Shown here piece after piece: positions 4,982 through 40,518 of a DNA stretch of 64,000 bases. The DNA comes from Gaiellaceae bacterium. GTDB lineage: Bacteria; Actinomycetota; Thermoleophilia; Gaiellales; Gaiellaceae. The stretch lies in the NCBI GenBank assembly GCA_036276015.1, contig DASUCN010000011.1, positions 16,057 to 80,056 on the forward strand, in the 5' to 3' direction. The translations under genes and the position numbers were made by a program. The notes beneath the pieces are model-generated. The model was given only the letters and a program-made list of their open reading frames with translations, was not told the origin of the DNA and ran no database searches. Numbering within the stretch: the first letter of the stretch is position 1; each line of letters starts with the position of its first letter.

Positions 4982-5323
4982 CTACGGCTCCCAACTCTCG
5001 CCGCCGGTGTCCCAGCCGATGAGGACCTGCGGGGCGATGAGCGTCGCCACCGTTTCGAGTACGGCACGGTCCGGATCGCCGTCGACCCGGAGCTCGCCGA
5101 CGAGTCCTCCCTGGAACGAGATCGGGACGACGGTGCGGCGCGTCTCGTCCGGTGTCCCGGCGGACGGCCCTTGAATCAGCTCACCCTCGTCGAGGAAGAA
5201 GATGCCGGCCCAGGCGATCGCGGGCTCCGCGGCCAGGGCAACGATGACGTGGCGCAGAGCGTCGTCGACCTCTGCGTGCTCGACGAGCGCGCGCTCGATC
5301 TCGTCGAGTGGAGCGCCGCTCAC
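4982..5323 (-). CDS. Small GAF-domain-like protein
   Basis: GTG at 5321-5323 overlaps the thioesterase stop (GTGA). Only the C-terminal 113 aa of the 202-aa track ORF look protein-like (IFFLDEGELIQGPSAG...VPISFQGGLVGELRV...ETVATLIA). The upstream portion is an out-of-frame read of the thioesterase gene. Confidence 0.5.
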   Translation of the reverse strand: MSGAPLDEIERALVEHAEVDDALRHVIVALAAEPAIAWAGIFFLDEGELIQGPSAGTPDETRRTVVPISFQGGLVGELRVDGDPDRAVLETVATLIAPQVLIGWDTGGESWEP

Positions 5324-5781
5324 TCCGCGACGTCGCTTCCTTCGAACGCCCGCAGCGCCGCCCTCAGCCCATCCGGCACGGCCGTCGGGCGCCGAGTCGC
5401 GACCTCGATGAGCACGAGCGTCTGATGCGCCGTGACCATGAGGGTGTCGTCGGGAAGGCGGTAGGCGGCGCACTCGTACGCGATGCTCGTCCGCCCGATG
5501 CGCGAGACGCGCACGAACGCCTCGATGAGGTCGTCGAAGCGCGCAGGGGCGTGGTAGTCGACGGCGGACGCGCGCATGACGAACTCGCACCCAGGTGTTG
5601 TGAGCCCGCCCAGGTGCCGGTGGTACTCGGTTCGTGCGTGATCGAAGTAGGGGAGGTAGCGGCCGTAGTAGACGACCCCCTGCGCATCGGTGTCGGAGAA
5701 CCAGACGCGGGCAAGCGCCGAGTACTTGAACGGCGGTCGCCGGTCGGTGACGCGGCCGAGTTCCGGCGCCGCCGCGCTCAC
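5320..5781 (-). CDS. Hotdog-fold acyl-CoA thioesterase (YbgC/4HBT family)
   Basis: It carries FSDTDAQGVVYYGRYLPYFDHARTEYHRHLG, the typical N-terminal catalytic Asp context. The GTG start overlaps the upstream stop (GTGA at 5778-5781). Confidence 0.85.
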   Translation of the reverse strand: MSAAAPELGRVTDRRPPFKYSALARVWFSDTDAQGVVYYGRYLPYFDHARTEYHRHLGGLTTPGCEFVMRASAVDYHAPARFDDLIEAFVRVSRIGRTSIAYECAAYRLPDDTLMVTAHQTLVLIEVATRRPTAVPDGLRAALRAFEGSDVAE

Positions 5782-7190
5782 GAGGCCCGGATGACGCCGA
5801 GCACCTCGTCCCGCTTCTCGACCATGCGCGCTTCCGACAGCGCCTCGAGGTTCAACCGCAGCAGTGGCTCCGTGTTCGACGGGCGCACGTTGAAGTGCCA
5901 GTCGTCGAAGTCGATCGAGATCCCGTCCAGGTGCGAAACGCGGCCGCCCTCGGCCGTATAGCGCTCCTTGAGCTCCTGAAGCTTCAGCGGGACGTCGGCG
6001 ACCGGGGTGTTGATCTCGCCCGTGAGGAAGAACCGTTCGCGGTACGGGCGCAGGAGCTCCGACAGCGGACGGTCGCTACGGGACAGCAGCTCGAGCATGA
6101 CGAGGAAGGGGACGACGCCGGTGTCCGCTTGCGAGAAGTCCCGGAAGTAGTAGTGCGCGGAAACCTCGCCGGCGAACACGGCGTCTTCCGCGCGCATGCG
6201 CTGCTTGATGAAGGCATGGCCCACGCGATTGACGAGCGGGGTGCCACCGGCGCGCGTGATCGTCTCGGGCACGGCCCAGCTCGCACGGACGTCGTAGAGG
6301 ATCTTCTCTCCGGGCGCCTTCGCGAGGACGGCCTCGGAGAGGAGCGCCGTGACGAAGTCGCCAGGCACGAACTCACCCGTGTCGTCGACGAAGAAGCAGC
6401 GGTCTGCGTCGCCGTCGTAGGCGACGCCGAGGTCGGCGTGCTCCTCCTGCACCTTCGCGACGATGAACTCACGGTTCTCGGGAAGCAGCGGATTCGGCTC
6501 GTGGTTGGGAAAGCTGCCGTCGGGATCGAAGTAACAGCGGACGATCTCCAGCTGGGGAAGCCGTTCGAGGACCGGGGGCAGCATCACTCCCGCCATGCCG
6601 TTCGCTGCATCCACGACGACGCGCAGTGGGCGGATCGCCTCGATGTCGACGAACGACAGGACCTTGGCGACGAAGCTCGGCCAGACGTCCTCGGATCTCG
6701 TCGTTCCGCGGCGATCGCTCTCGCCGAACCCGGACTCCGCGCGGGCCCGGATCTCGGCGAGACCCGAGTCGCCGCCGACCGGGAGGGCGCCGCGACGCAC
6801 GATCTTCATCCCCGTGTACTCCTTCGGGTTGTGCGACGCGGTCACGCAGATGCCGCCGTCGAGGCCGAGCTCGGTGACCGCGTGGTAGAGCATCTCGGTC
6901 CCGATGAGGCCCAGCTCGGCGACGTCGGTGCCCGCGTCGACGACGCCCTCGACGACGGCTGTGTACACCGCGGGCGACGAGATCCGCATGTCGTGCCCGA
7001 TGGCGACGGTGTGCGGCTCGAAGTGCGCCGCGTATGCGCGTCCGACGCGATAGGCGCCCTCCTCATCCAGCTGGCTCGGATAGATCCCGCGGACGTCGTA
7101 GGCCTTGAAGACGGACGGATCGAGCACGGCGGGATGGTAGTCGCCCCCGCCGGCGTTTCTACACTTCAGTCGTGGAGCGAAAGCTCGCAT
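5778..7190 (-). CDS. Phosphomannomutase/phosphoglucomutase (alpha-D-phosphohexomutase)
   Basis: It has the active-site loop TASHNPKEYTGMK, the metal loop DGDADR and an FKAYDVRG N-terminus. The start is uncertain. ATG 7190 overlaps the divergent cyclase gene by 19 nt, whereas GTG 7127 (VLDPSVFKAYDVRG) avoids this. Confidence 0.93.
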   Translation of the reverse strand: MRAFAPRLKCRNAGGGDYHPAVLDPSVFKAYDVRGIYPSQLDEEGAYRVGRAYAAHFEPHTVAIGHDMRISSPAVYTAVVEGVVDAGTDVAELGLIGTEMLYHAVTELGLDGGICVTASHNPKEYTGMKIVRRGALPVGGDSGLAEIRARAESGFGESDRRGTTRSEDVWPSFVAKVLSFVDIEAIRPLRVVVDAANGMAGVMLPPVLERLPQLEIVRCYFDPDGSFPNHEPNPLLPENREFIVAKVQEEHADLGVAYDGDADRCFFVDDTGEFVPGDFVTALLSEAVLAKAPGEKILYDVRASWAVPETITRAGGTPLVNRVGHAFIKQRMRAEDAVFAGEVSAHYYFRDFSQADTGVVPFLVMLELLSRSDRPLSELLRPYRERFFLTGEINTPVADVPLKLQELKERYTAEGGRVSHLDGISIDFDDWHFNVRPSNTEPLLRLNLEALSEARMVEKRDEVLGVIRAS

Positions 7191-10135
7191 CCGTGCTGTT
7201 CGTGGACATCGTCGACTCGACGCGCCTGGTGACGGGCGCAGATCCCGAGGTCGTGCGGCGACGGGTCACACGCTTCTTCGAGACGGTCTCCAGTTGCGTG
7301 CGGCAGCACGGGGGCATCGTCGAGAAGTTCGCAGGCGACGCGGTGATGGCGGCGTTCGGTGTTCCTCAGGCGCACGAGGACGACGCGCAGCGCGCGATCC
7401 GGGCGGCGCTCGCGATGCGCGCAGCCGTCGACGAGCTCCAGCTCGAGGCGCGCATCGGGATCGAGGCCGGCGAAGTCGTCGTGGACGGTGCGGAGTCGAC
7501 CTTCGCCACCGGCGAGGCCGTCAACCTCGCGGCACGCCTGCAGGAGGCGGCGCGACCCGGGGAGATCCTCGTCGGTCCCACCGCCTACCGGCTCGCAGCC
7601 GGGAGTCTCGTAGGCGAGGACGCCGGCCCCCTCGAGCTGAAGGGGATCGACGGGCCGTTTCGGGCATGGCGCGTCGTCGATCTCCTCGACGGGCCGGGCC
7701 GTCCGGTCGGGCCGCGTGCCCCGCTCGTCGGGCGCGAGGCCGAGCTCGAGCTCCTCGAGAACACGTTCAATCGCAGCTTGCGCGATCGCCGCGCGCACCT
7801 GTTCACGATCTACGGCGAGGCCGGCGTCGGGAAGAGCCGGCTTGCGCGAGAGTTCCTCGACGGCGTCGAGCGGGCGAGCGTTCTCATGGGCCGCGCGCTC
7901 CCGTACGGAGAGGGCGTCACGTACTGGCCGCTGGGCGAGATGGTGAAGGCGGCGGCCGGGATCTCCGACGACGACCCGCTCGAGGAGGCTTTCGAGAAGC
8001 TGCGTGAGTGCTGCGCGGAGGAGGCGGTCGCCGACGTGCTGGGTCTCGCTTCCGGGCTCATGGAGGCGCTCGAGGGCGAGCGAAGCCCGCAGGAGATCGC
8101 CTGGGCCGCACGCGAGGTCATGCAGGGCATTGCCGACGTGCAGCCCTTGATCTTGCTCTTCGAGGACATCCACTGGGCCGAGGCGCCGCTGCTCGACCTC
8201 ATCGAGCACATCGCGGATTGGGTGCGGGCGCCCGTCCTCATCCTCTGCCTCGCCAGGCCGGAGCTCCTCGAGACGCGACCGGACTGGGGTGGAGGTCGCG
8301 TTCGCTCGACCGCCATCGAGCTCGAACCGCTCTCCGAGGACGAGAGCGCCGAGCTCGTGGAGCAGCTTCTCAGTCAGCTCGCGGGGGCTGCGGGCGAGCG
8401 TCCGACGTCACTCCCGCGGGAAGCGCTCGATCGGGCGGAGGGGAATCCGCTCTTCGTCGAGGAGACGATCCGCATGCTCGTCGAGTCGGGCTCCGGTAAC
8501 GGCTCGGCCGATCGCGTCCCTGACACGCTGCAGGCGCTCATCGCAGCCCGTATCGACCATCTCTCGCCCGACGCGAAGACACTGCTGCAGCGCGCATCCG
8601 TCATTGGTCGCGTCTTCTGGCGCGGAGCGCTCGAGCACCTCGCGCCAGACGTCGCCGACCACACCGAGGCGCTGGAGGACCTGCTGGGGCGGGAGTTCCT
8701 CCTTCGAGAGCCGCGCTCGTCGATCTCCGGTGAGGCCGCCTATCGCTTCAAGCATGCGCTCATCCGCGAGGTCGCCTACACGGGCTTGTCGAAGCTTGCC
8801 CGCGCCCAGTACCACGCCCGTTTCGCCGAGTGGCTCGCGGATCGCACGGGCGAGGAGCTCGTCGAGATCCGCGCGTATCACCTCGACCAGGCCGTCGAGT
8901 TCCTCACCGAGCTCGAGGGAGCGCCGCCGGAGGAGCTCGCACACGAGACTGCTGCCGCGCTGGTGAAGGCGGCCAAGCGTGCGATCGCCCGCGAGTCGTA
9001 CGCGAACGCGCGCTCGCTCGGCGTGCGCGCGCTCGAGCTCCGCCCGACCCTCGGTGCCAGGTACGTGGCCGCACGGGCGGCATGGAGGCTGCAGGACTGG
9101 TCGGCCGTGCAGGTGGAGATGGAGAAGGTGCGCGAGCAGGCGCGGGCGCTGGACGATCGGGTCCTCGAGGCGATGGCCGTCGCAGCGCTCGGCGAGGCTG
9201 CGCTCAAGCGTGACGGCGACGCGGATCGTGCACAGGAGCTCGTCGATCGAGCGCTCGAGATGCTCGCCGACCAGGACGACCCGGTTGCACGGTTCGAGGC
9301 GCTCACCATCCGCGCGATCATCGCCGGCTGGCACGCGAACATGGACGAGGTCGTGCTCTACATGGAGCGGGCCTACGCGCTGGCAATGGACGCAGGTCGC
9401 AAGGATCTCCAGACGACTGCGGCGCAGATCCTCGCGCAGACGCACCTCGTTCGCCTGGAGCTCGACGAGGCCGAGCTCTTGCTCACGCGAGCTCTCGAGC
9501 TGGCCGGCGAGAGCGGGAGCATCCGGTCGCGTGCGGGAGCATCGCTCGCCTACGGCTGGTTTCTCTCCCTGAGGGGCGAGCTCGACGCCGCCGAGACGGT
9601 GTACGAGGAGGTGCGACAGTCCGCGACCGAGCTCGGGATCGAGCCCACGATCGCGGCCGCGCTCATGAGGCTCGGCGGTGTGGCCGTCAAGCGGGGCGAC
9701 TACCGTCGCGCAGAGAAGCTCTTTCGCGAGGCGTTACGGATCACCGCGACGCGTGGCGATCGCGGGTTCCTTCCGGACACCAAGGCGTCGCTTGCGGAGG
9801 TCCTCGCCCTGGTCGGGAAGATCGACGAGGCCGAGCGGTTGATGGCCGAGGTGCAGAGGAGCCCGAGGCCGGAGGACAAGCACTTCGCGGTTACGGTCGA
9901 CGGGGTGCTCGCGATCGTCCGCGCCGCGCAGGGTCGCGACGAGGAGGCCGAGGCGCTGTTCCGGCGTGCGATCGAAGGGACCAAGGACGGCTGGCCGGCG
10001 CTCGAGCTCGAAGTCCTCGAACGCCTGGTCGTCTTCTATCGCGAGCGCGGGCGTGAGGACGACGCAGCGGCTTGTCAGGAGCGGATCGCGGAGCTCGTTC
10101 CGGCCGAGCCCTCGAGCACCGAGCGGATCGCCTGA
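7172..10135 (+). CDS. Class III adenylate/guanylate cyclase domain fused to a P-loop STAND-type ATPase and TPR repeats
   Basis: The N-terminal cyclase has VLFVDIVDSTRL...KFAGDAVMAAFG. The Walker A is GEAGVGKSRL. The long C-terminus is made of TPR-like helical repeats. GTG is at 7172. Confidence 0.9.
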   Translation: MERKLASVLFVDIVDSTRLVTGADPEVVRRRVTRFFETVSSCVRQHGGIVEKFAGDAVMAAFGVPQAHEDDAQRAIRAALAMRAAVDELQLEARIGIEAGEVVVDGAESTFATGEAVNLAARLQEAARPGEILVGPTAYRLAAGSLVGEDAGPLELKGIDGPFRAWRVVDLLDGPGRPVGPRAPLVGREAELELLENTFNRSLRDRRAHLFTIYGEAGVGKSRLAREFLDGVERASVLMGRALPYGEGVTYWPLGEMVKAAAGISDDDPLEEAFEKLRECCAEEAVADVLGLASGLMEALEGERSPQEIAWAAREVMQGIADVQPLILLFEDIHWAEAPLLDLIEHIADWVRAPVLILCLARPELLETRPDWGGGRVRSTAIELEPLSEDESAELVEQLLSQLAGAAGERPTSLPREALDRAEGNPLFVEETIRMLVESGSGNGSADRVPDTLQALIAARIDHLSPDAKTLLQRASVIGRVFWRGALEHLAPDVADHTEALEDLLGREFLLREPRSSISGEAAYRFKHALIREVAYTGLSKLARAQYHARFAEWLADRTGEELVEIRAYHLDQAVEFLTELEGAPPEELAHETAAALVKAAKRAIARESYANARSLGVRALELRPTLGARYVAARAAWRLQDWSAVQVEMEKVREQARALDDRVLEAMAVAALGEAALKRDGDADRAQELVDRALEMLADQDDPVARFEALTIRAIIAGWHANMDEVVLYMERAYALAMDAGRKDLQTTAAQILAQTHLVRLELDEAELLLTRALELAGESGSIRSRAGASLAYGWFLSLRGELDAAETVYEEVRQSATELGIEPTIAAALMRLGGVAVKRGDYRRAEKLFREALRITATRGDRGFLPDTKASLAEVLALVGKIDEAERLMAEVQRSPRPEDKHFAVTVDGVLAIVRAAQGRDEEAEALFRRAIEGTKDGWPALELEVLERLVVFYRERGREDDAAACQERIAELVPAEPSSTERIA

Positions 10136-15689: not shown

Positions 15690-16265
15690 TCAGGCTGCCT
15701 CGGTCGCGGCGCTCGGGAGCGCGACCGAACTGACGAGGTGGAGATCCGGCAATGCCCGCCAGCTCTCGTCGAGCCCGAGCCCGTAGCCGGCGAACAGCTC
15801 GTCGGGCACCGTGAAACCCGTGAAGCGAAGCGGGAGCGCGTCCACGAGGCGTCGAACCGGGCGGTCGAGGAGCGCCACGGCGGCGAGGCTCGCGGGATTC
15901 CGGAGGCCGAGCGTCCGGCAGAGGAAGTGGAGCGTGAGACCCGTGTCGACGACGTCCTCGACGAGGAGGACGTGCCGGCCCTCGAGAGGTGAGTCGACGT
16001 CCTTGAGGAGGCGCACGCCGCCGCCCTGTCCACCCGTGTACGGCGCAAGCTCGACGACGTCAAGGGTGTGCGGGATCGAGAGCGCGCGCGTCAGGTCGGC
16101 GAGGAAGACGACGCTCGACTTGAGCGGCGCGATGAGGATCGGGTCGAGCTCGTCGTAGGCCGCCGATATCTCCTGGCCGAGCTCGGCCACGCGCGTGGCG
16201 ATCTCGGCCCGCGTGAGGTAGACGGCCCCGACCGCACCCGGATCGGATGTGTGCGCGTGCGCCAC
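15690..16265 (-). CDS. hpt: Hypoxanthine-guanine phosphoribosyltransferase
   Basis: The PRPP-binding loop is VLLVEDVVDTGLTL. The start is GTG at 16263-16265. Confidence 0.9.
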   Translation of the reverse strand: MAHAHTSDPGAVGAVYLTRAEIATRVAELGQEISAAYDELDPILIAPLKSSVVFLADLTRALSIPHTLDVVELAPYTGGQGGGVRLLKDVDSPLEGRHVLLVEDVVDTGLTLHFLCRTLGLRNPASLAAVALLDRPVRRLVDALPLRFTGFTVPDELFAGYGLGLDESWRALPDLHLVSSVALPSAATEAA

Positions 16266-16750
16266 TACGAAGCCAGCCGCAGTCTGTACCGCTGCGCGAG
16301 CCGCTCGATGTCGCGACGGTAGAAGAGCTTCACCTTGACGTGCGGGTAGAGGCGCTGGACCTCGCGAAGCTTTCGGTTCTTCCGGGTCACGAGCGACTGT
16401 TTCATGACCGTGACCTCGATGAACAAGTTCTGCTCGGGGAGGTAGAAGTCCGGCGTGAAGGCGCTGACGACCTTCCCGTTCTCGTCACGCTCCAGGACGA
16501 ACGAGTGTGGCTCGTAGTCCCAGGGGATGCCGTAGTAGTCGAGGATCTTTGCGCACTCGACCTCGACCCGGTTCGCGAACCGCGGAGCTTCGCTTCCGCA
16601 ATATGCCTGGAAAACGGGACTTTCCTCCCGCACCTGGGCCAGGGTAGCAACGGCCTCGGACGACCCCCGACGAGCCGCCGTAGACTTCGATCGTGTTCCG
16701 GATCGCGCAGTTCTCCGACCTCCACTGCGGCGAGACCTACTTCGAGGCAA
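16265..16750 (-). CDS. Conserved-looking hypothetical protein (start uncertain)
   Basis: The C-terminal ~120 aa are Lys-containing and protein-like (ILDYYGIPWDYEPHSF...FTPDFYLPEQNLFIEVTVMK...). The N-terminal ~35 aa are Arg/Ser-rich and overlap the divergent gene at 16693. An alternative GTG is at 16633. Confidence 0.55.
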   Translation of the reverse strand: MPRSRSRRSGGRRTARSGTRSKSTAARRGSSEAVATLAQVREESPVFQAYCGSEAPRFANRVEVECAKILDYYGIPWDYEPHSFVLERDENGKVVSAFTPDFYLPEQNLFIEVTVMKQSLVTRKNRKLREVQRLYPHVKVKLFYRRDIERLAQRYRLRLAS

Positions 16751-17481
16751 GCCTCCTCGAGCGCGCGATCGGCGAGATCAACGAGCTCGAGCCCGACGTC
16801 GTCGTCTGCTCCGGCGACCTGACGACGTTCGGTTTCAGGCACGAGTACCTGACCGCGCGCGAGTACATAGACCGCATCCACTGCGACTCGCTGGTCGTCG
16901 TGCCCGGGAACCACGACTCGCGAAACGTCGGCTACGTCCACTTCGAGGAGATGTTCGGCGACCGGAACTCCGTGCTGCGCAAGGGGGACGTCGCCATCGT
17001 CGCGGTCGACTCGAGCGAGCCCGACCTGGACCACGGCCAGATCGGGCGCGGTCGCTACCGGTGGATCGAAGAGCAGTTTCGAGCCGAGCCGGCCGACCTG
17101 AAGATCTTCGTCCTGCACCACCACTTGCTGCCCGTGCCGGGGACGGGCCGCGAGCGCAACATCGTCCACGACGCGGGCGACGCGATCGAGTGCCTGCAGC
17201 GCGCGGGTGTCCGGCTCGTCCTCTCGGGACACAAGCACGTGCCGTACGTCTGGCGCCTCGAGGATCTCTTCGTCGTCAACGCGGGAACCGTTTCGTCGCT
17301 GCGGCTCCGTGGCAACACCAGGCCTTGTTACAACGTCATCGAGATCGCGGATCGCAAGGTCGACGTCTGGCGTCGACATCCGTTCCACGGGCAAGAGCGG
17401 CTCGTCTCCTTCACGCTCGACACGCTCGAGTACGCGAAGTACACCGGTGCGATAGAGGACGAGGTCACGGCGCGCACGTGA
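16693..17481 (+). CDS. Calcineurin-like metallophosphoesterase
   Basis: The motifs are SDLHCG, SGDLT, GNHD, HHH and SGHKH, in canonical order. The stop overlaps the next start (GTGA). Confidence 0.9.
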   Translation: MFRIAQFSDLHCGETYFEASLLERAIGEINELEPDVVVCSGDLTTFGFRHEYLTAREYIDRIHCDSLVVVPGNHDSRNVGYVHFEEMFGDRNSVLRKGDVAIVAVDSSEPDLDHGQIGRGRYRWIEEQFRAEPADLKIFVLHHHLLPVPGTGRERNIVHDAGDAIECLQRAGVRLVLSGHKHVPYVWRLEDLFVVNAGTVSSLRLRGNTRPCYNVIEIADRKVDVWRRHPFHGQERLVSFTLDTLEYAKYTGAIEDEVTART

Positions 17482-18734
17482 GAGCGGTCGCGATCGTCGA
17501 CGGCGAGCACTACGCCTCCGTCGTCCGACACGCCCTCGAGGAGATGCCGTACGAGTTCGTCGCTGCGGTGCTCGTCGGCGGACAGGAGAAGCTTCGCGGT
17601 GGCGAGGACTACGGTGTCCCGCTCGGTGCGGACGTCGAGTCGACGCTCGCTGCATTCTCTCCGGAGGTCGTCGTCGATCTCTCTGACGAGCCGGTGCTCG
17701 GACCGCCGGAGCGGCTCGCACTCGCGAGCCGGGTTCTCGCCGCGGGTGTGTCCTACGTCGGGGCGGACTTCCGCTTCGATCCGCCCGAGCGGGCGCCGTT
17801 TGCGCTTCCGTCACTCGCTGTCGTCGGCACGGGCAAGCGTGTCGGCAAGACGGCGGTCACGGGTCACGTCGCACGACTGCTCTCGTCGGATCGGGCGGTG
17901 GTCGTCGTCGCGATGGGGCGCGGCGGGCCGCCCGAGCCAGAGGTCGTCACGGTGCGTCCGACCGTCGATGCGCTCGTCGAGCTGTCGCGGTCCGGCCGGC
18001 ATGCTGCGTCCGACCACCTCGAGACCGCAGCCTTGGTCGGCGTTGCGACGGTGGGCTGTCGCCGATGCGGAGGGGGCCTCGCGGGCGCTGTCGCGACGTC
18101 CAACGTTCTCGAGGGCTCGCGGCTCGCGGCACAGCTCGCGCCGGACCTGGTCGTCTTCGACGGAAGCGGCGCCGCTCTACCTCCGATCGCGGCGGGCGGC
18201 ACGGTCGTCGTCGTCGGCGGTCACCAGGATCCGGGCGTCGTCTCGGGGTACCTGAACGCATTCCGGCTTCTCCTTGCCGACCTCGTCGTGCTGTCGATGG
18301 CCGAGGAGGACAGCGGTTGGGAAGTGGTGCGAGCGGGCGTGGCCGGGGTGGTGCCGGAGAGCGTCCCCATCGTTGCGACCACACTGCGTCCCCGGCCGCT
18401 GCAGAGCGTTCGCGGCCGCACGGTCGCGTACTTCTGTGCGGCGCCGCAGGACGCCCACGGTCGTCTGCGGACGCACCTCGAGGAGACGCATGGCGCCCGG
18501 GTCGTCCACGTCTCCGGGAATCTCGCGAACAGAGCAGCGCTTCGCGTCGAGCTCGAGACGCTCTCCGCCGACGTCTATCTCGTCGAGCTCAAGGCCGCGG
18601 CGGTCGACGTCGTGGCCGAAGCCGCGCTCGCTCGAGACGCCGAGGTGGTGCTCGCAGCGAACGACCTGGTCCCTCGCGCGGGTGAGCCGGACCTTGACGG
18701 ACTGCTCCTCGACGTGGCCAAATTCCGGGGGTGA
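17478..18734 (+). CDS. Cyclic 2,3-diphosphoglycerate synthetase-like protein
   Basis: GTG 17478 overlaps the upstream stop. The N-terminus is AIVDGEHYASVV and the P-loop is VVGTGKRVGKT. I recognise the overall sequence as the cDPG-synthetase family from memory, without an HMM check. The first 139 aa of the 557-aa track ORF are an out-of-frame read of the phosphoesterase gene. Confidence 0.7.
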   Translation: MRAVAIVDGEHYASVVRHALEEMPYEFVAAVLVGGQEKLRGGEDYGVPLGADVESTLAAFSPEVVVDLSDEPVLGPPERLALASRVLAAGVSYVGADFRFDPPERAPFALPSLAVVGTGKRVGKTAVTGHVARLLSSDRAVVVVAMGRGGPPEPEVVTVRPTVDALVELSRSGRHAASDHLETAALVGVATVGCRRCGGGLAGAVATSNVLEGSRLAAQLAPDLVVFDGSGAALPPIAAGGTVVVVGGHQDPGVVSGYLNAFRLLLADLVVLSMAEEDSGWEVVRAGVAGVVPESVPIVATTLRPRPLQSVRGRTVAYFCAAPQDAHGRLRTHLEETHGARVVHVSGNLANRAALRVELETLSADVYLVELKAAAVDVVAEAALARDAEVVLAANDLVPRAGEPDLDGLLLDVAKFRG

Positions 18735-19642
18735 GCGAGCGCCGCTATCGGCTCCCGTTGCCGCTCGGCGACGAGGTGCCGTTCTCGAAGGGCCTGATGG
18801 CGCGAGCGCTCGTCGTGACCGGCCTCGACCCCGAGCGCGCGTACCTCATCGCACGTCGAGCCGACCGCGACCTGACCGAGCGTGGCGCGTTGTCGCTCGA
18901 TCTCGACCGCCTCGGCGAGCTCGCCGCCGAGCTGATCGGCGAGGAGGAGGCGGCACGCACCGTGCGGCGACTTCGCCGGATCGACGCGCTCCAGCGCCTC
19001 GACGAGCCACTCCTCTTGCTCGTGGGCGGGGCAACCGGCACCGGGAAGTCGACGATCGCGACCGAGGCCGCACATCGTCTCGGCATCACGCGGGTCACGT
19101 CGACGGACTTCATCCGGCAGACGATGCGCACCTTCTTCTCGAAGGAGTTCATGCCGTCGGTCCACTACTCGAGCTTCGAGGCTCGACTCGCACTCACACG
19201 CGCCGAGGAGGAGGAGTCGGGCGACGCCGCGATCCTCGGATTTCTCGACCAGACGCGGAACGTCCTGGTCGGCGTCGATGCGGCTCTCGAGCGCGCCGCA
19301 ACCGAGCGCTGGTCGACGGTGCTCGAAGGAGTGCACCTCGTCCCTGGCATGCTCGACGTCGCTTATCCCGGCGCGTTCGTCGTGCAGTGCGTGATCGCGA
19401 TCGAGGACGAGAACCTGCACCGCAGCCATTTCTGGGTACGTGACCACGCGACGGAGGGCCTGCGCCCGCTCGAGAAGTACCTCGACTCGCTGCCGCAGAT
19501 CCGCCAGATCCAGGACTACCTCGTCGAGCGCGCCAGGCGTCACGACGTCCCTGTCATCCACAACGACTCGCTCGACCGTGCGATCGGAGACGTTCTCGAC
19601 CTCGTGCTCCGCCGAGCGGATCAGCTCGTCGCCGTCGCGTAG
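18731..19642 (+). CDS. 2-phosphoglycerate kinase-like protein
   Basis: GTG 18731 overlaps the upstream stop (GTGA). The N-terminal regulatory module has VPFSKGLMARAL. The Walker A is GGATGTGKST, followed by TSTDFIRQ. This matches my recollection of the archaeal 2PGK family. Confidence 0.75.
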   Translation: MSERRYRLPLPLGDEVPFSKGLMARALVVTGLDPERAYLIARRADRDLTERGALSLDLDRLGELAAELIGEEEAARTVRRLRRIDALQRLDEPLLLLVGGATGTGKSTIATEAAHRLGITRVTSTDFIRQTMRTFFSKEFMPSVHYSSFEARLALTRAEEEESGDAAILGFLDQTRNVLVGVDAALERAATERWSTVLEGVHLVPGMLDVAYPGAFVVQCVIAIEDENLHRSHFWVRDHATEGLRPLEKYLDSLPQIRQIQDYLVERARRHDVPVIHNDSLDRAIGDVLDLVLRRADQLVAVA

Positions 19643-19665
19643 AGACGCGTCTCTACACTTGCCGC

Positions 19666-19965
19666 ATGGTCACTCGCGAGGACGTCATCGAGGCCCTGCA
19701 CGGCGTTGAGGATCCCGAGCTCGGGATGGACATCGTCGAGCTCGGTCTCATGTACGACGTCGAGGTCGACGACTCGAAGGTCAAGGTGACGTACAGCCTG
19801 ACCTCGATGGGCTGTCCGGCGGGCGCGATGATCGCGGACGGCATCGTCGACGCTGCCCGCTCCGTACCGGGTGTGGAGGAGGTCGAGGCGGAGCTGACGT
19901 TCGACCCGCCGTGGACGCCCGACCGGATGTCGGACGACGCGAAGTTCATCCTCGGCTTCGGCTGA
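19666..19965 (+). CDS. DUF59/SufT-family Fe-S assembly protein
   Basis: It has EDPELGMDIVELGL...TSMGCPAG, the typical DUF59 (MIP18) signature. Confidence 0.85.
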   Translation: MVTREDVIEALHGVEDPELGMDIVELGLMYDVEVDDSKVKVTYSLTSMGCPAGAMIADGIVDAARSVPGVEEVEAELTFDPPWTPDRMSDDAKFILGFG

Positions 19966-19975
19966 ATTGTCCGCA

Positions 19976-20004
19976 GACCGGAATCCGCGGATGCGGATTC
20001 GGTC
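19976..20004. repeat. Intergenic hairpin repeat, copy A (gaccggaatccgc-ggat-gcggattcggtc)
   Basis: It starts 11 nt after the sufT stop. It is near-identical to the copy after ftsZ (63884-63913), and the flanks also align (ttgtNcgca...ggtcgcg.ga...aaag.cgc). Confidence 0.7.
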
Positions 20005-20107
20005 GCGTGAGTCAAAGACGCTCGCGACGCGCACCGATGCCGTGTCGGCCGTTCCTGATCCGCTAATGAGGCGAGTGGGCCGCACCCGTAGCGAGCAACT
20101 GCTCGCT

Positions 20108-21097
20108 CTAGCCGGGGATCGAGAGGACGATCTTGCCGAACTGCTCACCAGCCTCGAGCCGCTCGTGCGCACGCGCTGCATCGGCCAGCGGGAACACGCT
20201 GTCGACGTGCACGCGGGCACGACCCGATCGGATCAGCCCGTACGCGCCCTCGAAGTCGGACGGCATCCCCATCGTGGAGCCGTAGACGACGAGCTGCTTC
20301 CACCACAGCCGGTAGAGGCGTGCCGGCGGGCTGTGGCCGGAGGTCGCTCCGCACACGACGACGCGACCCTCCTGCGCGGCCGCGGCGAGCGATCGCTCCC
20401 AGGTTGCCTCACCGACCGTCTCGACCACCACGTCTGCACCCTTGCCGCCCGTGGCGTCCTTGACGGCCTGGACGACGTCTCCGTCGGCATGGTTCACGGC
20501 GACGTCGGCGCCGAGCGCGCGAGCTCGTTCGAGCTTCGCCTCGCTCGACGACGTGACGACGGTTCGTGCTCCGAGCGCGCGCGCGATCTCGAACGCGGCG
20601 AGTGCGACGCCTCCGCCGATGCCCCAGACCAGCACCCACTCGTCCTCCTGGAGCGCGGTCTTGGTGACGAGCATCCGGTACGCGGTCTCGAACACGAGGG
20701 GGAAGGCAGCCGCCTCCTCGAATGAAAGCGCCTCGTCGAGCGGGTAGAGCTGCCCTGCGGGGATCGACTTCAACTCACAGCAGGTGCCGTCCGTGTGCTC
20801 GCCGATGACGGTGATCCGGCCGTCGTGCGGGATACCTGGATTCACGACGACGCGGTCGCCGATCTCGAACCCGTCTACACCTTCGCCGAGCGCTGCGACG
20901 ACGCCGGCCCCGTCGGCGCCGAGGATGCGGGGCTTGGGAACCGACGGGAGCCCCTTCCGCACCCACACGTCGAGGTGGTTGAGGCCCGCGGCGCGCAGCG
21001 AGACCAGAACCTCACCCGGTGCGGGGTTCGGATCGTCGACGTCCTCGTACCGCAGCACCTCGGGACCACCGTCCTCGTGTATCCGGATCGCCTTCAC
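20108..21097 (-). CDS. Zinc-type/MDR-family alcohol dehydrogenase or quinone oxidoreductase
   Basis: It has the MDR fold (KAIRIHEDGGPEVL..., GADGAGVV, Rossmann VWGIGGGVALAAFEIARALG). I prefer GTG 21097 (giving MKAIRIHE) over the track ATG 21115, whose codon overlaps the queG ATG. Confidence 0.88.
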   Translation of the reverse strand: MKAIRIHEDGGPEVLRYEDVDDPNPAPGEVLVSLRAAGLNHLDVWVRKGLPSVPKPRILGADGAGVVAALGEGVDGFEIGDRVVVNPGIPHDGRITVIGEHTDGTCCELKSIPAGQLYPLDEALSFEEAAAFPLVFETAYRMLVTKTALQEDEWVLVWGIGGGVALAAFEIARALGARTVVTSSSEAKLERARALGADVAVNHADGDVVQAVKDATGGKGADVVVETVGEATWERSLAAAAQEGRVVVCGATSGHSPPARLYRLWWKQLVVYGSTMGMPSDFEGAYGLIRSGRARVHVDSVFPLADAARAHERLEAGEQFGKIVLSIPG

Positions 21098-21113: not shown

Positions 21114-22115
21114 ATGACCGCCGCCGAGCTGACGGAACTGGCCGTCGAGCTCGGGATCGACGCCGTGGGCGCTGCTCCGGTTGCGCCCTACGAGGAGACC
21201 GAGCAGCACATCGTGGACCGTCGCGCGCGCGGGCTCTTCGCAGACATGCGCTTCACGATGTCGCGGCCCGACATCTCGTGCCATCCGGAGCGCCTGCTCG
21301 AGGGCGCGAAGACGGTGATCGCCGGCGCGCTCTGCTACTACCGCCCCGAGCCGGCGCTGGGGGCCGACGAAGGACGGCTTCCGCGATACACGTGGCGCGA
21401 CGAGTACGCCCTGCTGCGCCAGCGCCTCGACGAGCTGGGGAGGAGACTCGGTGGGGCGTATCGCGTGCTCGTGGACGAGTCCGACCACGTCGACCGTGCG
21501 GCGGCCGTTCGCGCGGGAATCGCGTTCTACGGCAAGAACACGCTGGCGATCACGCGCCGTCACGGCTCGTGGGTCGTCCTCGGCGTCGTCGTCACCGACG
21601 TGGAGATCGAGCCGTCCTCGCCGCTTGGACTCGACTGCGGTGAGTGCCGGTTGTGCATCGACGCATGCCCAACGGGCGCGTTGGACGATCCGGGAACCCT
21701 CGACTCGACTAGGTGCCTCTCCTACTGGACGCAGGCACCGGCTTCCATCCCCGAGCAGTACCGTGCCGAGCTGGGGCCGATGGTCTACGGCTGCGACGTC
21801 TGCCAGGACGTGTGCCCGTGGAACCGCGGGGTCGAGAAGCGGAGGCAGGGTGTGACGGATGAGACAGCCAGTGGGGGCGTGTCGCTCGTCGACTGGCTCG
21901 AGCGTGACGGGCATTCGCTCGTCGCGGAGTTCGACCGGTTGTACGTGCCTCGGAACGACGCTCGCTGGCTCCGTCGCAACGCTCTCATCGCAGCGGGGAA
22001 CGTCGGAACGGAGGATCTCGGGCCAAACGTGAGTCGTTACGTCGACGATCCCGACCCCATGCTCGCCGAGACGGCCGCGTGGGCGCTGGCGCAGATCGGA
22101 GCGCGGAAGAAGTGA
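21114..22115 (+). CDS. queG: Epoxyqueuosine reductase
   Basis: The internal ATG is at 21114. The two 4Fe-4S motifs are CGECRLCIDACPTGAL and CDVCQDVCPWN. The C-terminal tail is HEAT-like. Confidence 0.9.
   Translation: MTAAELTELAVELGIDAVGAAPVAPYEETEQHIVDRRARGLFADMRFTMSRPDISCHPERLLEGAKTVIAGALCYYRPEPALGADEGRLPRYTWRDEYALLRQRLDELGRRLGGAYRVLVDESDHVDRAAAVRAGIAFYGKNTLAITRRHGSWVVLGVVVTDVEIEPSSPLGLDCGECRLCIDACPTGALDDPGTLDSTRCLSYWTQAPASIPEQYRAELGPMVYGCDVCQDVCPWNRGVEKRRQGVTDETASGGVSLVDWLERDGHSLVAEFDRLYVPRNDARWLRRNALIAAGNVGTEDLGPNVSRYVDDPDPMLAETAAWALAQIGARKK

Positions 22116-38929: not shown

Positions 38930-40518
<1,589 letters not shown>

Follow-up and report, generated by a model that had tools for sequence, protein, structure and literature searches.

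The three genes studied here lie in a bacterial genome, the metagenome-assembled genome (MAG) of a Gaiellaceae bacterium (Actinomycetota, Thermoleophilia). We analysed a stretch of 64,000 nucleotides of one of its contigs, called the window below. The genes form a translationally coupled operon on the forward strand, with the following features:

16693..17481, forward strand: ORF1, 262 amino acids, GTG start; predicted calcineurin-like metallophosphoesterase (MPE)
17478..17481, forward strand: GTGA overlap of the ORF1 stop (TGA) and the ORF2 start (GTG), read directly in the sequence
17478..18734, forward strand: ORF2, 418 amino acids, GTG start at 17478; predicted homologue of cyclic 2,3-diphosphoglycerate (cDPG) synthetase (CpgS, cDPGS)
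18731..18734, forward strand: GTGA overlap of the ORF2 stop and the ORF3 start, read directly in the sequence
18731..19642, forward strand: ORF3, 303 amino acids, GTG start; predicted P-loop kinase of the 2-phosphoglycerate kinase (2PGK) type

The chaining of the three reading frames described in the original prediction is real, because the letters at the junctions (...ACGTGAGAG... at 17478-17481 and ...GGGGTGAGC... at 18731-18734) are 4-nt GTGA start/stop overlaps, and it is kept in relatives. Among 86 related loci, each with all three genes, 4-nt overlaps of the MPE stop with the cDPGS start occur in 59 and 1-nt overlaps in 13; for the cDPGS stop and the 2PGK start, the corresponding numbers are 65 (4 nt) and 5 (1 nt). 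By this count, the overlaps at both junctions are not due to chance. ORF2 lies in the frame of a longer ORF (17061..18734), and the start with biological support is the GTG at 17478; read from there it equals the NCBI-called protein P0001 (100% identity, 100% coverage). The start codons of ORF2 and ORF3 are supported because the protein alignments with most relatives extend to residue 1 to 3. The GC3 values of ORF1 (0.91) and ORF3 (0.87) are typical of real genes in a window of 70% G+C, and the peptides quoted when the operon was first described (AIVDGEHY, VVGTGKRVGKT, VPFSKGLMARAL, GGATGTGKST and TSTDFIRQ) all occur in the translations.

The three proteins and their closest relatives

ORF2 had been recognized as a likely cDPG synthetase, and a comparison with the crystallised enzyme of Methanothermus fervidus agrees with this. 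A phmmer search of the PDB matched residues 3 to 396 of ORF2 to chain residues 6 to 429 of M. fervidus cDPGS (8ORU/8ORK) with an E-value of 7.3e−80, and a further match, to 9SXB, had an E-value of 8.5e−79; the identity to full-length M. fervidus cDPGS is 39% over 417 aligned columns. P0001, identical to ORF2, carries PF27272 (CpgS_N) in its precomputed Pfam entry, and the Walker A motif of ORF2, GTGKRxGKT, is the same as in the M. fervidus enzyme. There, residues E45, K46, K145, R146, K149, T150, D208, E305, E404, and K406 are ligands of 2,3-diphosphoglycerate (2,3-DPG), Mg, and phosphates (PMC10690619); all 10 positions could be mapped confidently and are kept in ORF2 as E37, K38, K120, R121, K124, T125, D179, E276, E370, and K372. 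Full-length similarity, the CpgS_N domain, and the Walker A motif with the ligand set are all found in ORF2, and these comparisons establish it, at the level of sequence and family, as a CpgS homologue with conserved ligand residues. In 50 diverse relatives, K46, K145, R146, K149, T150, E404, and K406 (M. fervidus numbering) are invariant and E45 and D208 nearly so; E305 is present in ORF2 but not kept family-wide. Unlike the M. fervidus enzyme, in which T353 contacts adenosine, ORF2 has an alanine (A321) at this position. Relatives of ORF2 occur in at least 540 species-level genomes, and bacterial members of the family are no rarity. Public pipelines already assign the cDPG synthetase name to such bacterial proteins.

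The best and full-length matches of ORF3 are two curated NCBIfam equivalogs of 2PGK, NF008994 (E-value of 1.9e−81, 274 bits) and NF003259 (E-value of 7.7e−78, 262 bits, profile positions 14 to 294 of 306), with the next families much lower at 141 and 83 bits, and the earlier assignment to a 2PGK-type kinase therefore stands. Its Walker A motif is GGATGTGKST. ORF3 scores below the cut-offs of both equivalogs (603 for NF008994 and 343 for NF003259), as do the kinase partners in six other cpgS loci, the Asgard one included, which reach 290 to 338 bits. We use the label "2PGK-type" because ORF3 and these six cluster-linked partners miss the cut-offs. A search for a relative of ORF3 with a solved structure gave none.

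These subthreshold scores, in a family that includes kinases of other substrates, leave some room for the idea that ORF2 and ORF3 catalyze a chemistry other than that of the methanogen enzymes and that cDPG is not made. ORF3 could then phosphorylate a different acid, as does the related mevalonate-3-phosphate 5-kinase, and ORF2 could be a cycliser of another bisphosphate or an arginine synthetase like ArcE (TK2200) of Thermococcus kodakarensis, a distant cDPGS relative that is widespread in bacteria (PMC11032458); moreover, cDPG from a bacterium has never been reported in the open literature. We consider this highly improbable. ArcE and ORF2 share the same broad P-loop superfamily, but ArcE resembles cDPGS only remotely, and no protein of known function came up in a BLAST search with ArcE (PMC11032458), as opposed to the E-value of 7e−80 and the complete set of DPG and Mg ligands in ORF2. 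By this indirect comparison, ORF2 probably falls on the cDPGS side, and it is coupled to a 2PGK-type kinase rather than to arcB or arcC; among the window ORFs scanned, none had an OTC or carbamate-kinase domain. Likewise, ORF3 scores 262 to 274 bits on the 2PGK models versus 83 bits on the mevalonate-3-phosphate kinase model, and the genes for ORF2 and ORF3 form a coupled pair that, in relatives, is also associated with genes for phosphoglycerate mutases.

ORF1 matches Pfam PF00149 with 73 bits (cut-off 21.5) and has all metal-ligand motifs (DxH, GD, GNHD, H, and GHxH), with the invariant residues D9, H11, D42, N73, H74, H142-144, H180, and H182. Judged by these motifs, it is an intact binuclear metallophosphoesterase of the calcineurin-like superfamily; an obvious membrane segment is absent and the protein looks soluble and cytosolic. 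The AlphaFold2 model (mean pLDDT of 85) has its best structural matches in GpdQ, the glycerophosphodiesterase of Enterobacter aerogenes (3d03; E-value of 1e−13, TM-score of 0.74, 17% identity), and in Rv0805, the class III phosphodiesterase of Mycobacterium tuberculosis. Both are diesterases and share the fold and the binuclear-metal motifs with ORF1, yet these best structure and sequence matches have only 17 to 22% identity to it. ORF1 differs from them in its genetic tie to cpgS and 2pgk and in having its own loops (SRNVGY, DSSEPD, VPGTGRERN, and LRLRG), which are kept across its family. JGI labels relatives of ORF1 as CpdA or Icc. For ORF1 we rejected the assignments to CpdA/Icc (NF008359 equivalog, 45.6 bits versus a cut-off of 225) and SpdA (44.5 bits versus a cut-off of 400).

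Linkage and phylogeny of the phosphoesterase

The textbook pathway does not include the phosphoesterase, as was pointed out when the operon was first described, and yet this enzyme is a conserved partner of the pair. Of 80 Gaiellales genome loci, 79 have the MPE-cDPGS-2PGK triad, and in the remaining one (L067) the contig ends before the position of the kinase. Five further loci, from other bacterial lineages, have the triad in differing surroundings (L086, L088, L089, L092, and L093), and a rearranged triad with tandem-duplicated MPEs is present in Cloacimonadota and the Asgard archaeon Borrarchaeum. The three genes are thus linked repeatedly in lineages that are far apart. When 11 lineages were sampled from the cDPGS side, 6 had the kinase and the MPE, both a few genes away at most, and the other 5 had neither; a search from the MPE side gave 27 metagenome loci linked to cDPGS. 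Gene neighbors elsewhere also fit such a pathway: glpX lies directly 3' of the kinase gene in 50 of the 80 Gaiellales loci, an archaeal-type phosphoglycerate mutase is encoded upstream in L086 and L093, and in Bipolaricaulota cpgS overlaps the gene for iPGM (3PG to 2PG). Neither an MPE nor a 2PGK gene was found among the genes adjoining cpgS in Methanothermobacter and M. fervidus, for which cDPG is proven. The cpgS gene of these methanogens is a solitary one with a RimB-like gene after it.

In an unbootstrapped tree, the proteins of Gaiellales group in a separate clade that lies at a large distance from the tight one of Methanobacteriales. The description of the pathway as "methanogen-type," with its implication of a loan from methanogens, is not upheld by this distance. 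For the MPEs, a neighbor-joining tree placed 25 of 25 single-domain cDPGS-linked proteins in one clade without an informative unlinked member. At least 24 of the 25 remained in a clade free of unlinked members in 70 of 100 bootstraps, and the exact split was recovered in 16 of 100. Hence, there is moderate support, from sequence, for the linked MPEs being one clade inside a wider family with otherwise unlinked members, and by its sequence ORF1 belongs to this cDPGS-linked clade of the GpdQ/Rv0805-like family. Many MPEs of the wider family (40 to 54% identity) have no cDPGS gene as a neighbor although their flanks extend for 4 kb or more on either side, and the MPE of L151 falls inside the linked clade with no cDPGS within 4.7 kb downstream. 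The Arg-rich active-site signature of ORF1 (R77, R119, R153-E154-R155, R204, and R206) is not specific for cDPG, because unlinked paralogues also have the set from R77 to R206.

Could the MPE be unrelated to the pathway, a general cyclic-nucleotide or phosphodiester phosphodiesterase that merely sits in the same compact operon? The JGI names of its relatives, the closeness to Rv0805 and GpdQ in both sequence and structure, and the active-site signature common to unlinked paralogues are in keeping with this, as are an adenylate-cyclase-domain gene 7 kb away in the window and the many family members that sit in unrelated contexts (in L141, one is flanked by phosphate- and phosphonate-binding proteins). 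However, the score of ORF1 on the CpdA equivalog is far below the cut-off, the linkage recurs amid different surroundings and gene orders and even in an archaeon, the linked MPEs group together phylogenetically, and the start/stop overlap with cpgS is kept. Taken together, we see little chance that the MPE is a bystander.

A somewhat less remote alternative, though still an unlikely one, accepts that the 2PGK-type and cDPGS enzymes do make 2,3-DPG and cDPG and regards the MPE as a flux-control or helper enzyme instead of a catabolic cDPG hydrolase. It could be a 2,3-DPG phosphatase that keeps a toxic or regulatory intermediate low, an enzyme of metabolite repair, or a partner that forms a stoichiometric complex with the synthetase. 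Translational coupling implies co-production and possibly a complex, which would be odd for an antagonistic enzyme, and the presence of the MPE tracks the clustering of the kinase exactly (6/6 versus 0/5 lineages). Within Gaiellales, the MPE is also better conserved (70 to 93% identity) than the other two proteins (57 to 77% for cDPGS), and in the tandem MPE of Cloacimonadota the metal-ligand motifs are lost from the second domain, suggesting an architectural role in dimerisation. On the other hand, the proposed cDPGS mechanism works without a third protein, 2PGK and cDPGS of M. fervidus alone are enough to produce cDPG both in vitro and in vivo (PMC10690619), and the nearest structural relatives of the MPE are diesterases, not monoesterases.

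A possible cDPG pool in Gaiellales

We slightly favor the explanation that the operon makes cDPG, that the MPE hydrolyses a product of the pathway, and that the resulting pool is a solute and/or a reserve, not a heat protectant. ORF3 would phosphorylate 2-phosphoglycerate with ATP to 2,3-DPG, and ORF2, using a second ATP, would close the intramolecular phosphoanhydride of 2,3-DPG to give cDPG. ORF1, co-evolving with the pair, would hydrolyse a pathway product, preferably by opening the cDPG ring to 2,3-DPG or, alternatively, by dephosphorylating 2,3-DPG. The cDPG pool could therefore be turned over or mobilised, and in these non-thermophilic soil bacteria cDPG may be an anionic compatible solute and/or a reserve of phosphate, carbon, and energy. 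We infer the product of the operon, the substrate of the MPE and the direction of its reaction, and the physiological role. The original prediction had raised a cDPG hydrolase or turnover enzyme as one possible function of the phosphoesterase; because the MPE is a conserved partner of the pair, turnover is a reasonable hypothesis, and the substrate stays putative.

Co-translation of a synthetase with a hydrolase would lead to a futile cycle unless both are regulated. The operons ppk-ppx and cphA-cphB each encode the synthetase of a reserve polymer together with its hydrolase, for a phosphate or nitrogen reserve. Their chemistry and proteins are unrelated to those of the cDPG operon and the comparison is an analogy only, illustrating that such co-encoding is not absurd.

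The open literature confines cDPG and cDPGS to hyperthermophilic methanogens (PMC10690619), in line with the original prediction, and the presence of genes of this pathway type in a bacterium, also part of that prediction, is confirmed by the Gaiellaceae host. The M. fervidus pathway (2PGK and cDPGS; 8ORK/8ORU) uses the same two enzyme families as ORF3 and ORF2. Unlike M. fervidus, the Gaiellaceae host is bacterial and from non-thermal habitats, and its cpgS lies in an overlapping operon with a 2PGK-type gene and a third gene, that of the MPE. The record titles of the carrier Gaiellales MAGs point to soil, fen, mud, rock-fracture, and possibly Antarctic ("ant") samples. With such origins, "thermoprotectant" is a label taken over from methanogens, and heat protection by the operon is improbable where soils are temperate or cold. 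A cDPG hydrolase activity was described in Methanothermobacter thermautotrophicus (Sastry et al. 1992) and is reviewed, with the gene unnamed, in PMC1224877. This enzyme converts cDPG to 2,3-DPG, the same reaction as we propose for ORF1; it was reported to be inhibited by K+ and Pi and to be membrane-bound (PMC1224877), whereas ORF1 is seemingly soluble.

A wider possibility, which we put forward only tentatively and regard as rather doubtful at present, is that cDPG is a widespread bacterial metabolite, made and mobilised as a reserve or protectant, with the MPE of the operon as the cDPG hydrolase. If true, cDPG would be no archaeal speciality for heat protection, as mesophilic Actinomycetota that are abundant in soil (Gaiellales) would make it, along with other phyla. 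It would instead be a dynamic reserve of phosphate, carbon, and energy, or an osmo- and desiccation protectant, and the MPE would provide a gene candidate for the cDPG hydrolase activity known since 1992.

Operon layout and the two biosynthetic genes

The operon consists of three genes read in the same direction:

16693-17481, + strand, ORF1, metallophosphoesterase (MPE), 262 aa
17478-18734, + strand, ORF2, cyclic 2,3-diphosphoglycerate (cDPG) synthetase homologue (cDPGS, gene cpgS), 418 aa
18731-19642, + strand, ORF3, 2-phosphoglycerate kinase (2PGK)-type protein, 303 aa

The three ORFs of the original prediction are all present, every peptide motif it had quoted is found in the translations, and both junctions indeed read GTGA. 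Hence, at each junction the GTG that opens one gene runs into the TGA that closes the gene before it, a 4-nt overlap, and start/stop overlaps are kept at both junctions in most related loci. Mechanical ORF listing begins ORF2 further upstream, at 17061; the public protein call (P0001, 100% identity and coverage) is the 418-aa form, and alignments with homologues begin at residue 1 to 3. The G+C content of the window is 70%, and the GC3 of ORF1 and ORF3 is high, as in real genes. Scanning positions 16000 to 20300 for promoters and terminators yielded none, and an Rfam search of the whole window gave no match.

Divergent from ORF1 lies a 161-aa ORF (window 16265-16750, - strand) that is kept, with 53 to 89% identity, in every Gaiellales locus reaching that far upstream. 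It has no Pfam match, and by eye its PDFYL...IEVT stretch presumably resembles a PD-(D/E)xK nuclease. Beginning at its TTG codon, it would share 58 nt with the 5' end of ORF1, which makes initiation further downstream more likely. Seven kilobases upstream of the operon, the window encodes a 987-aa protein (7172-10135, +) with an adenylate/guanylate-cyclase domain, an AAA_16 ATPase domain and TPR repeats; its adjacency to the operon is not conserved.

ORF2 had no match in local copies of Pfam and NCBIfam, and the identical P0001 bears the newer Pfam family PF27272 (CpgS_N). Solved cDPG synthetases are matched over nearly the full length, with E-values of 7e-80 for the M. fervidus enzyme (8ORU/8ORK) and 8.5e-79 for 9SXB. 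The latter is a third solved cDPG synthetase, of 436 aa and with a Lys-rich sequence, for which we found no paper. Aligned to the full-length M. fervidus protein (P0302), ORF2 shows 39% identity over 417 columns and keeps all ten residues reported to bind 2,3-diphosphoglycerate (2,3-DPG), Mg2+ or the nucleotide phosphates, namely, E45, K46, K145, R146, K149, T150, D208, E305, E404 and K406 (PMC10690619). The adenosine contact T353, replaced by Ala, is the sole change among the contacts mapped; P335 of the same study was set aside because it falls on a non-proline in P0302 numbering. Across 50 diverse relatives, seven of the ten ligand residues are invariant and two nearly so, and E305 varies family-wide.

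ORF3 matched two NCBIfam 2PGK equivalogs over the whole kinase, scoring 274 and 262 bits against curated cut-offs of 603 and 343 bits; the next-best families were a hypothetical-protein model (141 bits) and mevalonate-3-phosphate 5-kinase (83 bits). The cpgS-linked kinases of six other loci, including that of an Asgard archaeon, likewise fall under the cut-offs (290 to 338 bits), and we therefore use the name 2PGK-type kinase. Thus, the proposed assignment of ORF2 and ORF3 to the cDPGS and 2PGK families held for ORF2, via the solved synthetases and PF27272, and for the best match of ORF3, but not at the curated thresholds for the kinase.

By analogy to the characterized M. fervidus enzymes, and because the active site is conserved, ORF3 would convert 2-phosphoglycerate to 2,3-DPG and ORF2 would cyclize 2,3-DPG to cDPG. 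We consider it likely that the two proteins make cDPG. That they run a different chemistry altogether seems improbable to us; arginine synthesis by an ArcE-type enzyme was considered for ORF2 and, on the indirect ground that ArcE resembles cDPGS only remotely, judged unlikely. Other neighborhoods fit a phosphoglycerate substrate. In a Bipolaricaulota locus (L081, 6001-8908), cpgS overlaps a gene for cofactor-independent phosphoglycerate mutase by 8 nt, with no 2PGK or MPE gene nearby and a downstream 304-aa gene that has no Pfam or NCBIfam match, and an archaeal-type phosphoglycerate mutase gene lies upstream in two distant-lineage loci (L086 and L093).

Distribution of the synthetase family

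The cDPG synthetase family extends beyond methanogens. A profile-free exhaustive search returned 1,095 cluster representatives (clustering at 50% identity), of which 281 had E < 1e-30, and a pattern scan over one genome per GTDB species, with a 14-sequence alignment subset as the query, found a relative in at least 540 genomes. The best 80 of these all come from Gaiellales or related Thermoleophilia/Actinomycetota metagenome-assembled genomes, so the breadth outside that order comes from a handful of look-ups. Named relatives occur in Bipolaricaulota, Cloacimonadota, Eremiobacterota, other Actinomycetota and the Asgard genus Borrarchaeum; two further loci (L089 and L092) presumably also belong to Actinomycetota, as their lysA-hom-thrC-thrB...rho-rpmE-prfA context suggests. 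Relatives are found throughout the Methanobacteriales, including the mesophilic genera Methanobacterium and Methanobrevibacter. In Methanothermobacter and M. fervidus (L090, 9405-9935; L091, 5914-6492), a small RimB-like/Zn_protease (PF05618) gene directly follows cpgS and, in M. fervidus, overlaps it.

An unbootstrapped distance tree placed the Methanobacteriales in a tight clade and the Gaiellales in a separate clade with long, star-like branches. This separation speaks against a recent acquisition from methanogens.

Directly after the kinase gene, 50 of the best 80 loci carry glpX, encoding the gluconeogenic class II fructose-1,6-bisphosphatase (for example, L021, 8056-9132; PF03320, E 2e-100), and the cluster in much of the Gaiellales is therefore MPE-cDPGS-2PGK-glpX. 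No glpX was found in the whole 64-kb window or in its closest relatives.

The phosphoesterase and its linkage to the pair

ORF1 matches PF00149 (calcineurin-like metallophosphoesterase) with 73 bits and has all metal-ligand motifs intact. The nearest structures to its AlphaFold2 model (pLDDT 85) are the diesterases GpdQ (E 1e-13, TM 0.74, 17% identity) and Rv0805. ORF1 falls far short of the CpdA and SpdA equivalog cut-offs, and the "CpdA/Icc" names given to relatives by JGI are thus not supported.

How often the phosphoesterase accompanies the pair had been left as a question by the original prediction. Among the best 80 of at least 540 genomes, the MPE gene lies directly upstream of cpgS in every Gaiellales locus and the kinase gene downstream in 79, the exception (L067) ending before the kinase position. 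The whole Gaiellales neighborhood is syntenic, and the linkage there is by itself weak proof. Five distant-lineage loci (L086, L088, L089, L092 and L093) keep the MPE-cDPGS-kinase order in different surroundings. The order is cDPGS-kinase-CBS-MPE in Cloacimonadota and GDPD-cDPGS-kinase-MPE in Borrarchaeum; the MPEs of both are tandem duplications of the operon's type, the second Cloacimonadota copy lacking the motifs. Neither an MPE gene near cpgS nor a kinase gene beside it was seen in Bipolaricaulota, the L084 bacterium, Eremiobacterota, Methanothermobacter or M. fervidus. Hence, in a small, hand-picked sample of 11 lineages, the MPE tracks kinase clustering (six of six with the kinase versus none of five without).

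Viewed from the MPE side, 27 of 80 MPE loci on metagenome contigs were linked to cDPGS, and two MPEs taken from a profile search both lay inside triads. Fourteen loci were unlinked despite flanks of 4 kb or more on each side, with 36 to 54% identity to the linked panel MPEs. Identity was rejected as proof of orthology: the MPEs of L086, L088 and L089 stand at 49 to 54%, and unlinked paralogues reach 51 to 54% too, so orthology is judged from the tree and synteny. In a neighbor-joining tree, one clade takes in all 25 linked single-domain MPEs, together with L151 and three loci that have too little downstream flank for a verdict; the informative unlinked MPEs all fall outside, with L115 as sister. 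The exact split was recovered in 16 of 100 bootstraps, a clade free of unlinked MPEs that holds at least 24 of the 25 in 70, and the same with L115 admitted in 85. On these results, we read the MPE as a specific orthologous group tied to cpgS and 2pgk and nested in a wider family, a reading that is moderately well supported.

Within the linked clade, L126, L137, L156 and L151 form a high-GC subclade in which 1.7 to 2.4 kb of variable genes separate the MPE gene from cpgS, with the kinase gene following where the contig extends. L137 and L151 have folP upstream of the MPE gene. L151 has no cDPGS gene within 4.7 kb downstream, which may reflect loss or relocation.

Among unlinked paralogues, one lies between genes for a PstS-like protein and a phosphonate-binding protein (L141, 4075-6659), and at least some of the wider family may accordingly be diesterases that scavenge phosphorus. 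At the L115 locus, queA adjoins the MPE gene, and the window contains queG (epoxyqueuosine reductase, 21120-22115) and tgt (38969-40141); the recurrence of queuosine genes is probably a coincidence. Low-GC (0.32) contigs (L099 to L102) carry an unlinked MPE with 42 to 43% identity to the operon's; one is labelled human gut metagenome, and L100 (MPE at 5001-5744) has a NAC-domain neighbor. Their source is probably an archaeon, for example Methanobrevibacter, a cpgS-bearing genus, and they offer a lead to an unlinked MPE relative in cDPG-capable methanogens.

A 599-aa metagenome protein from a short contig (P0043) seemingly fuses MPE and cDPGS. Its middle part is the 3' end of the MPE gene translated in another frame, and the protein was therefore rejected as fusion evidence, being a frameshift or gene-calling artifact across the GTGA junction; the similar P0146 and P0256 probably have the same cause.

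Proposed role and significance

Why would a synthetase be translated together with a phosphoesterase? Binuclear MPEs include hydrolases of pyrophosphate bonds, such as LpxH and ApaH, and operons such as ppk-ppx pair the synthesis of a reserve with its breakdown. We favor a step in which the MPE would hydrolyze the phosphoanhydride of cDPG back to 2,3-DPG. M. thermautotrophicus is on record as having a cDPG hydrolase activity (PMC1224877), with no gene named in the sources cited. However, the hydrolase was reported there to be membrane-bound, and methanogens (Methanothermobacter and M. fervidus) have cpgS without an adjoining MPE gene. Moreover, Arg-rich loops of the MPE, considered as a cDPG-specific pocket, were rejected as such because unlinked paralogues have the same loops, and a hydrolase co-translated with the synthetase would have to be regulated if the two enzymes are not to form a futile cycle. 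These four points count against the hydrolase. The MPE could instead control flux as a 2,3-DPG phosphatase or act as a complex partner, which we regard as rather unlikely, and a diesterase unrelated to the pathway, as the nearest structures might suggest, appears improbable given the orthologous group tied to both genes. Taking hydrolysis of cDPG and flux control together, the MPE probably acts on cDPG or 2,3-DPG. The explanation as a whole, in which the operon makes cDPG and the MPE turns over cDPG or 2,3-DPG, has in our judgment a little better than an even chance of being correct.

The original prediction spoke of a thermoprotectant pathway. None of our results favors heat protection: the carriers belong to temperate and cold environments on land, and the record titles of the best 80 genomes name soil, fen, mud, rock-fracture and possibly Antarctic ("ant") samples. 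More plausibly, cDPG would act here as an anionic compatible solute or would store phosphate, carbon and energy, as earlier authors proposed for M. thermautotrophicus (PMC1224877).

Both biosynthetic genes belong to known families, and it is the host group that is unexpected. Structural and biotechnological work states that cDPG and cDPGS occur only in hyperthermophilic methanogens (PMC10690619), and evolutionary studies have taken cpgS to indicate thermophilic ancestors (PMC7554672). Public pipelines (NCBI and JGI) call many bacterial members "(cyclic) 2,3-diphosphoglycerate synthetase"; P0001 is titled "MAG TPA: hypothetical protein [Gaiellaceae bacterium]", and annotation is thus inconsistent across public records. 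This bacterial naming is not mirrored in the searchable literature. The genes go unmentioned in the genome paper on Gaiella occulta, a search pairing the synthetase term with Gaiella found nothing (the phrase may have stumbled on its comma), and among the matches listed for "diphosphoglycerate synth..." no title or abstract start signalled bacterial cpgS homologues. What is new relative to the known pathway is the three-gene, translationally coupled module with its dedicated MPE clade, of which we found no description in the searchable open literature.

In summary, a complete, conserved and co-translated pathway in an abundant soil order would overturn the statements in PMC10690619 and PMC7554672, and cDPG would need rethinking as a soil metabolite tied to phosphorus, energy or stress. 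Mesophilic enzymes would become available for making a commercially interesting extremolyte. The MPE is a concrete, cheaply testable candidate gene for the catabolic enzyme that the pathway still lacks.
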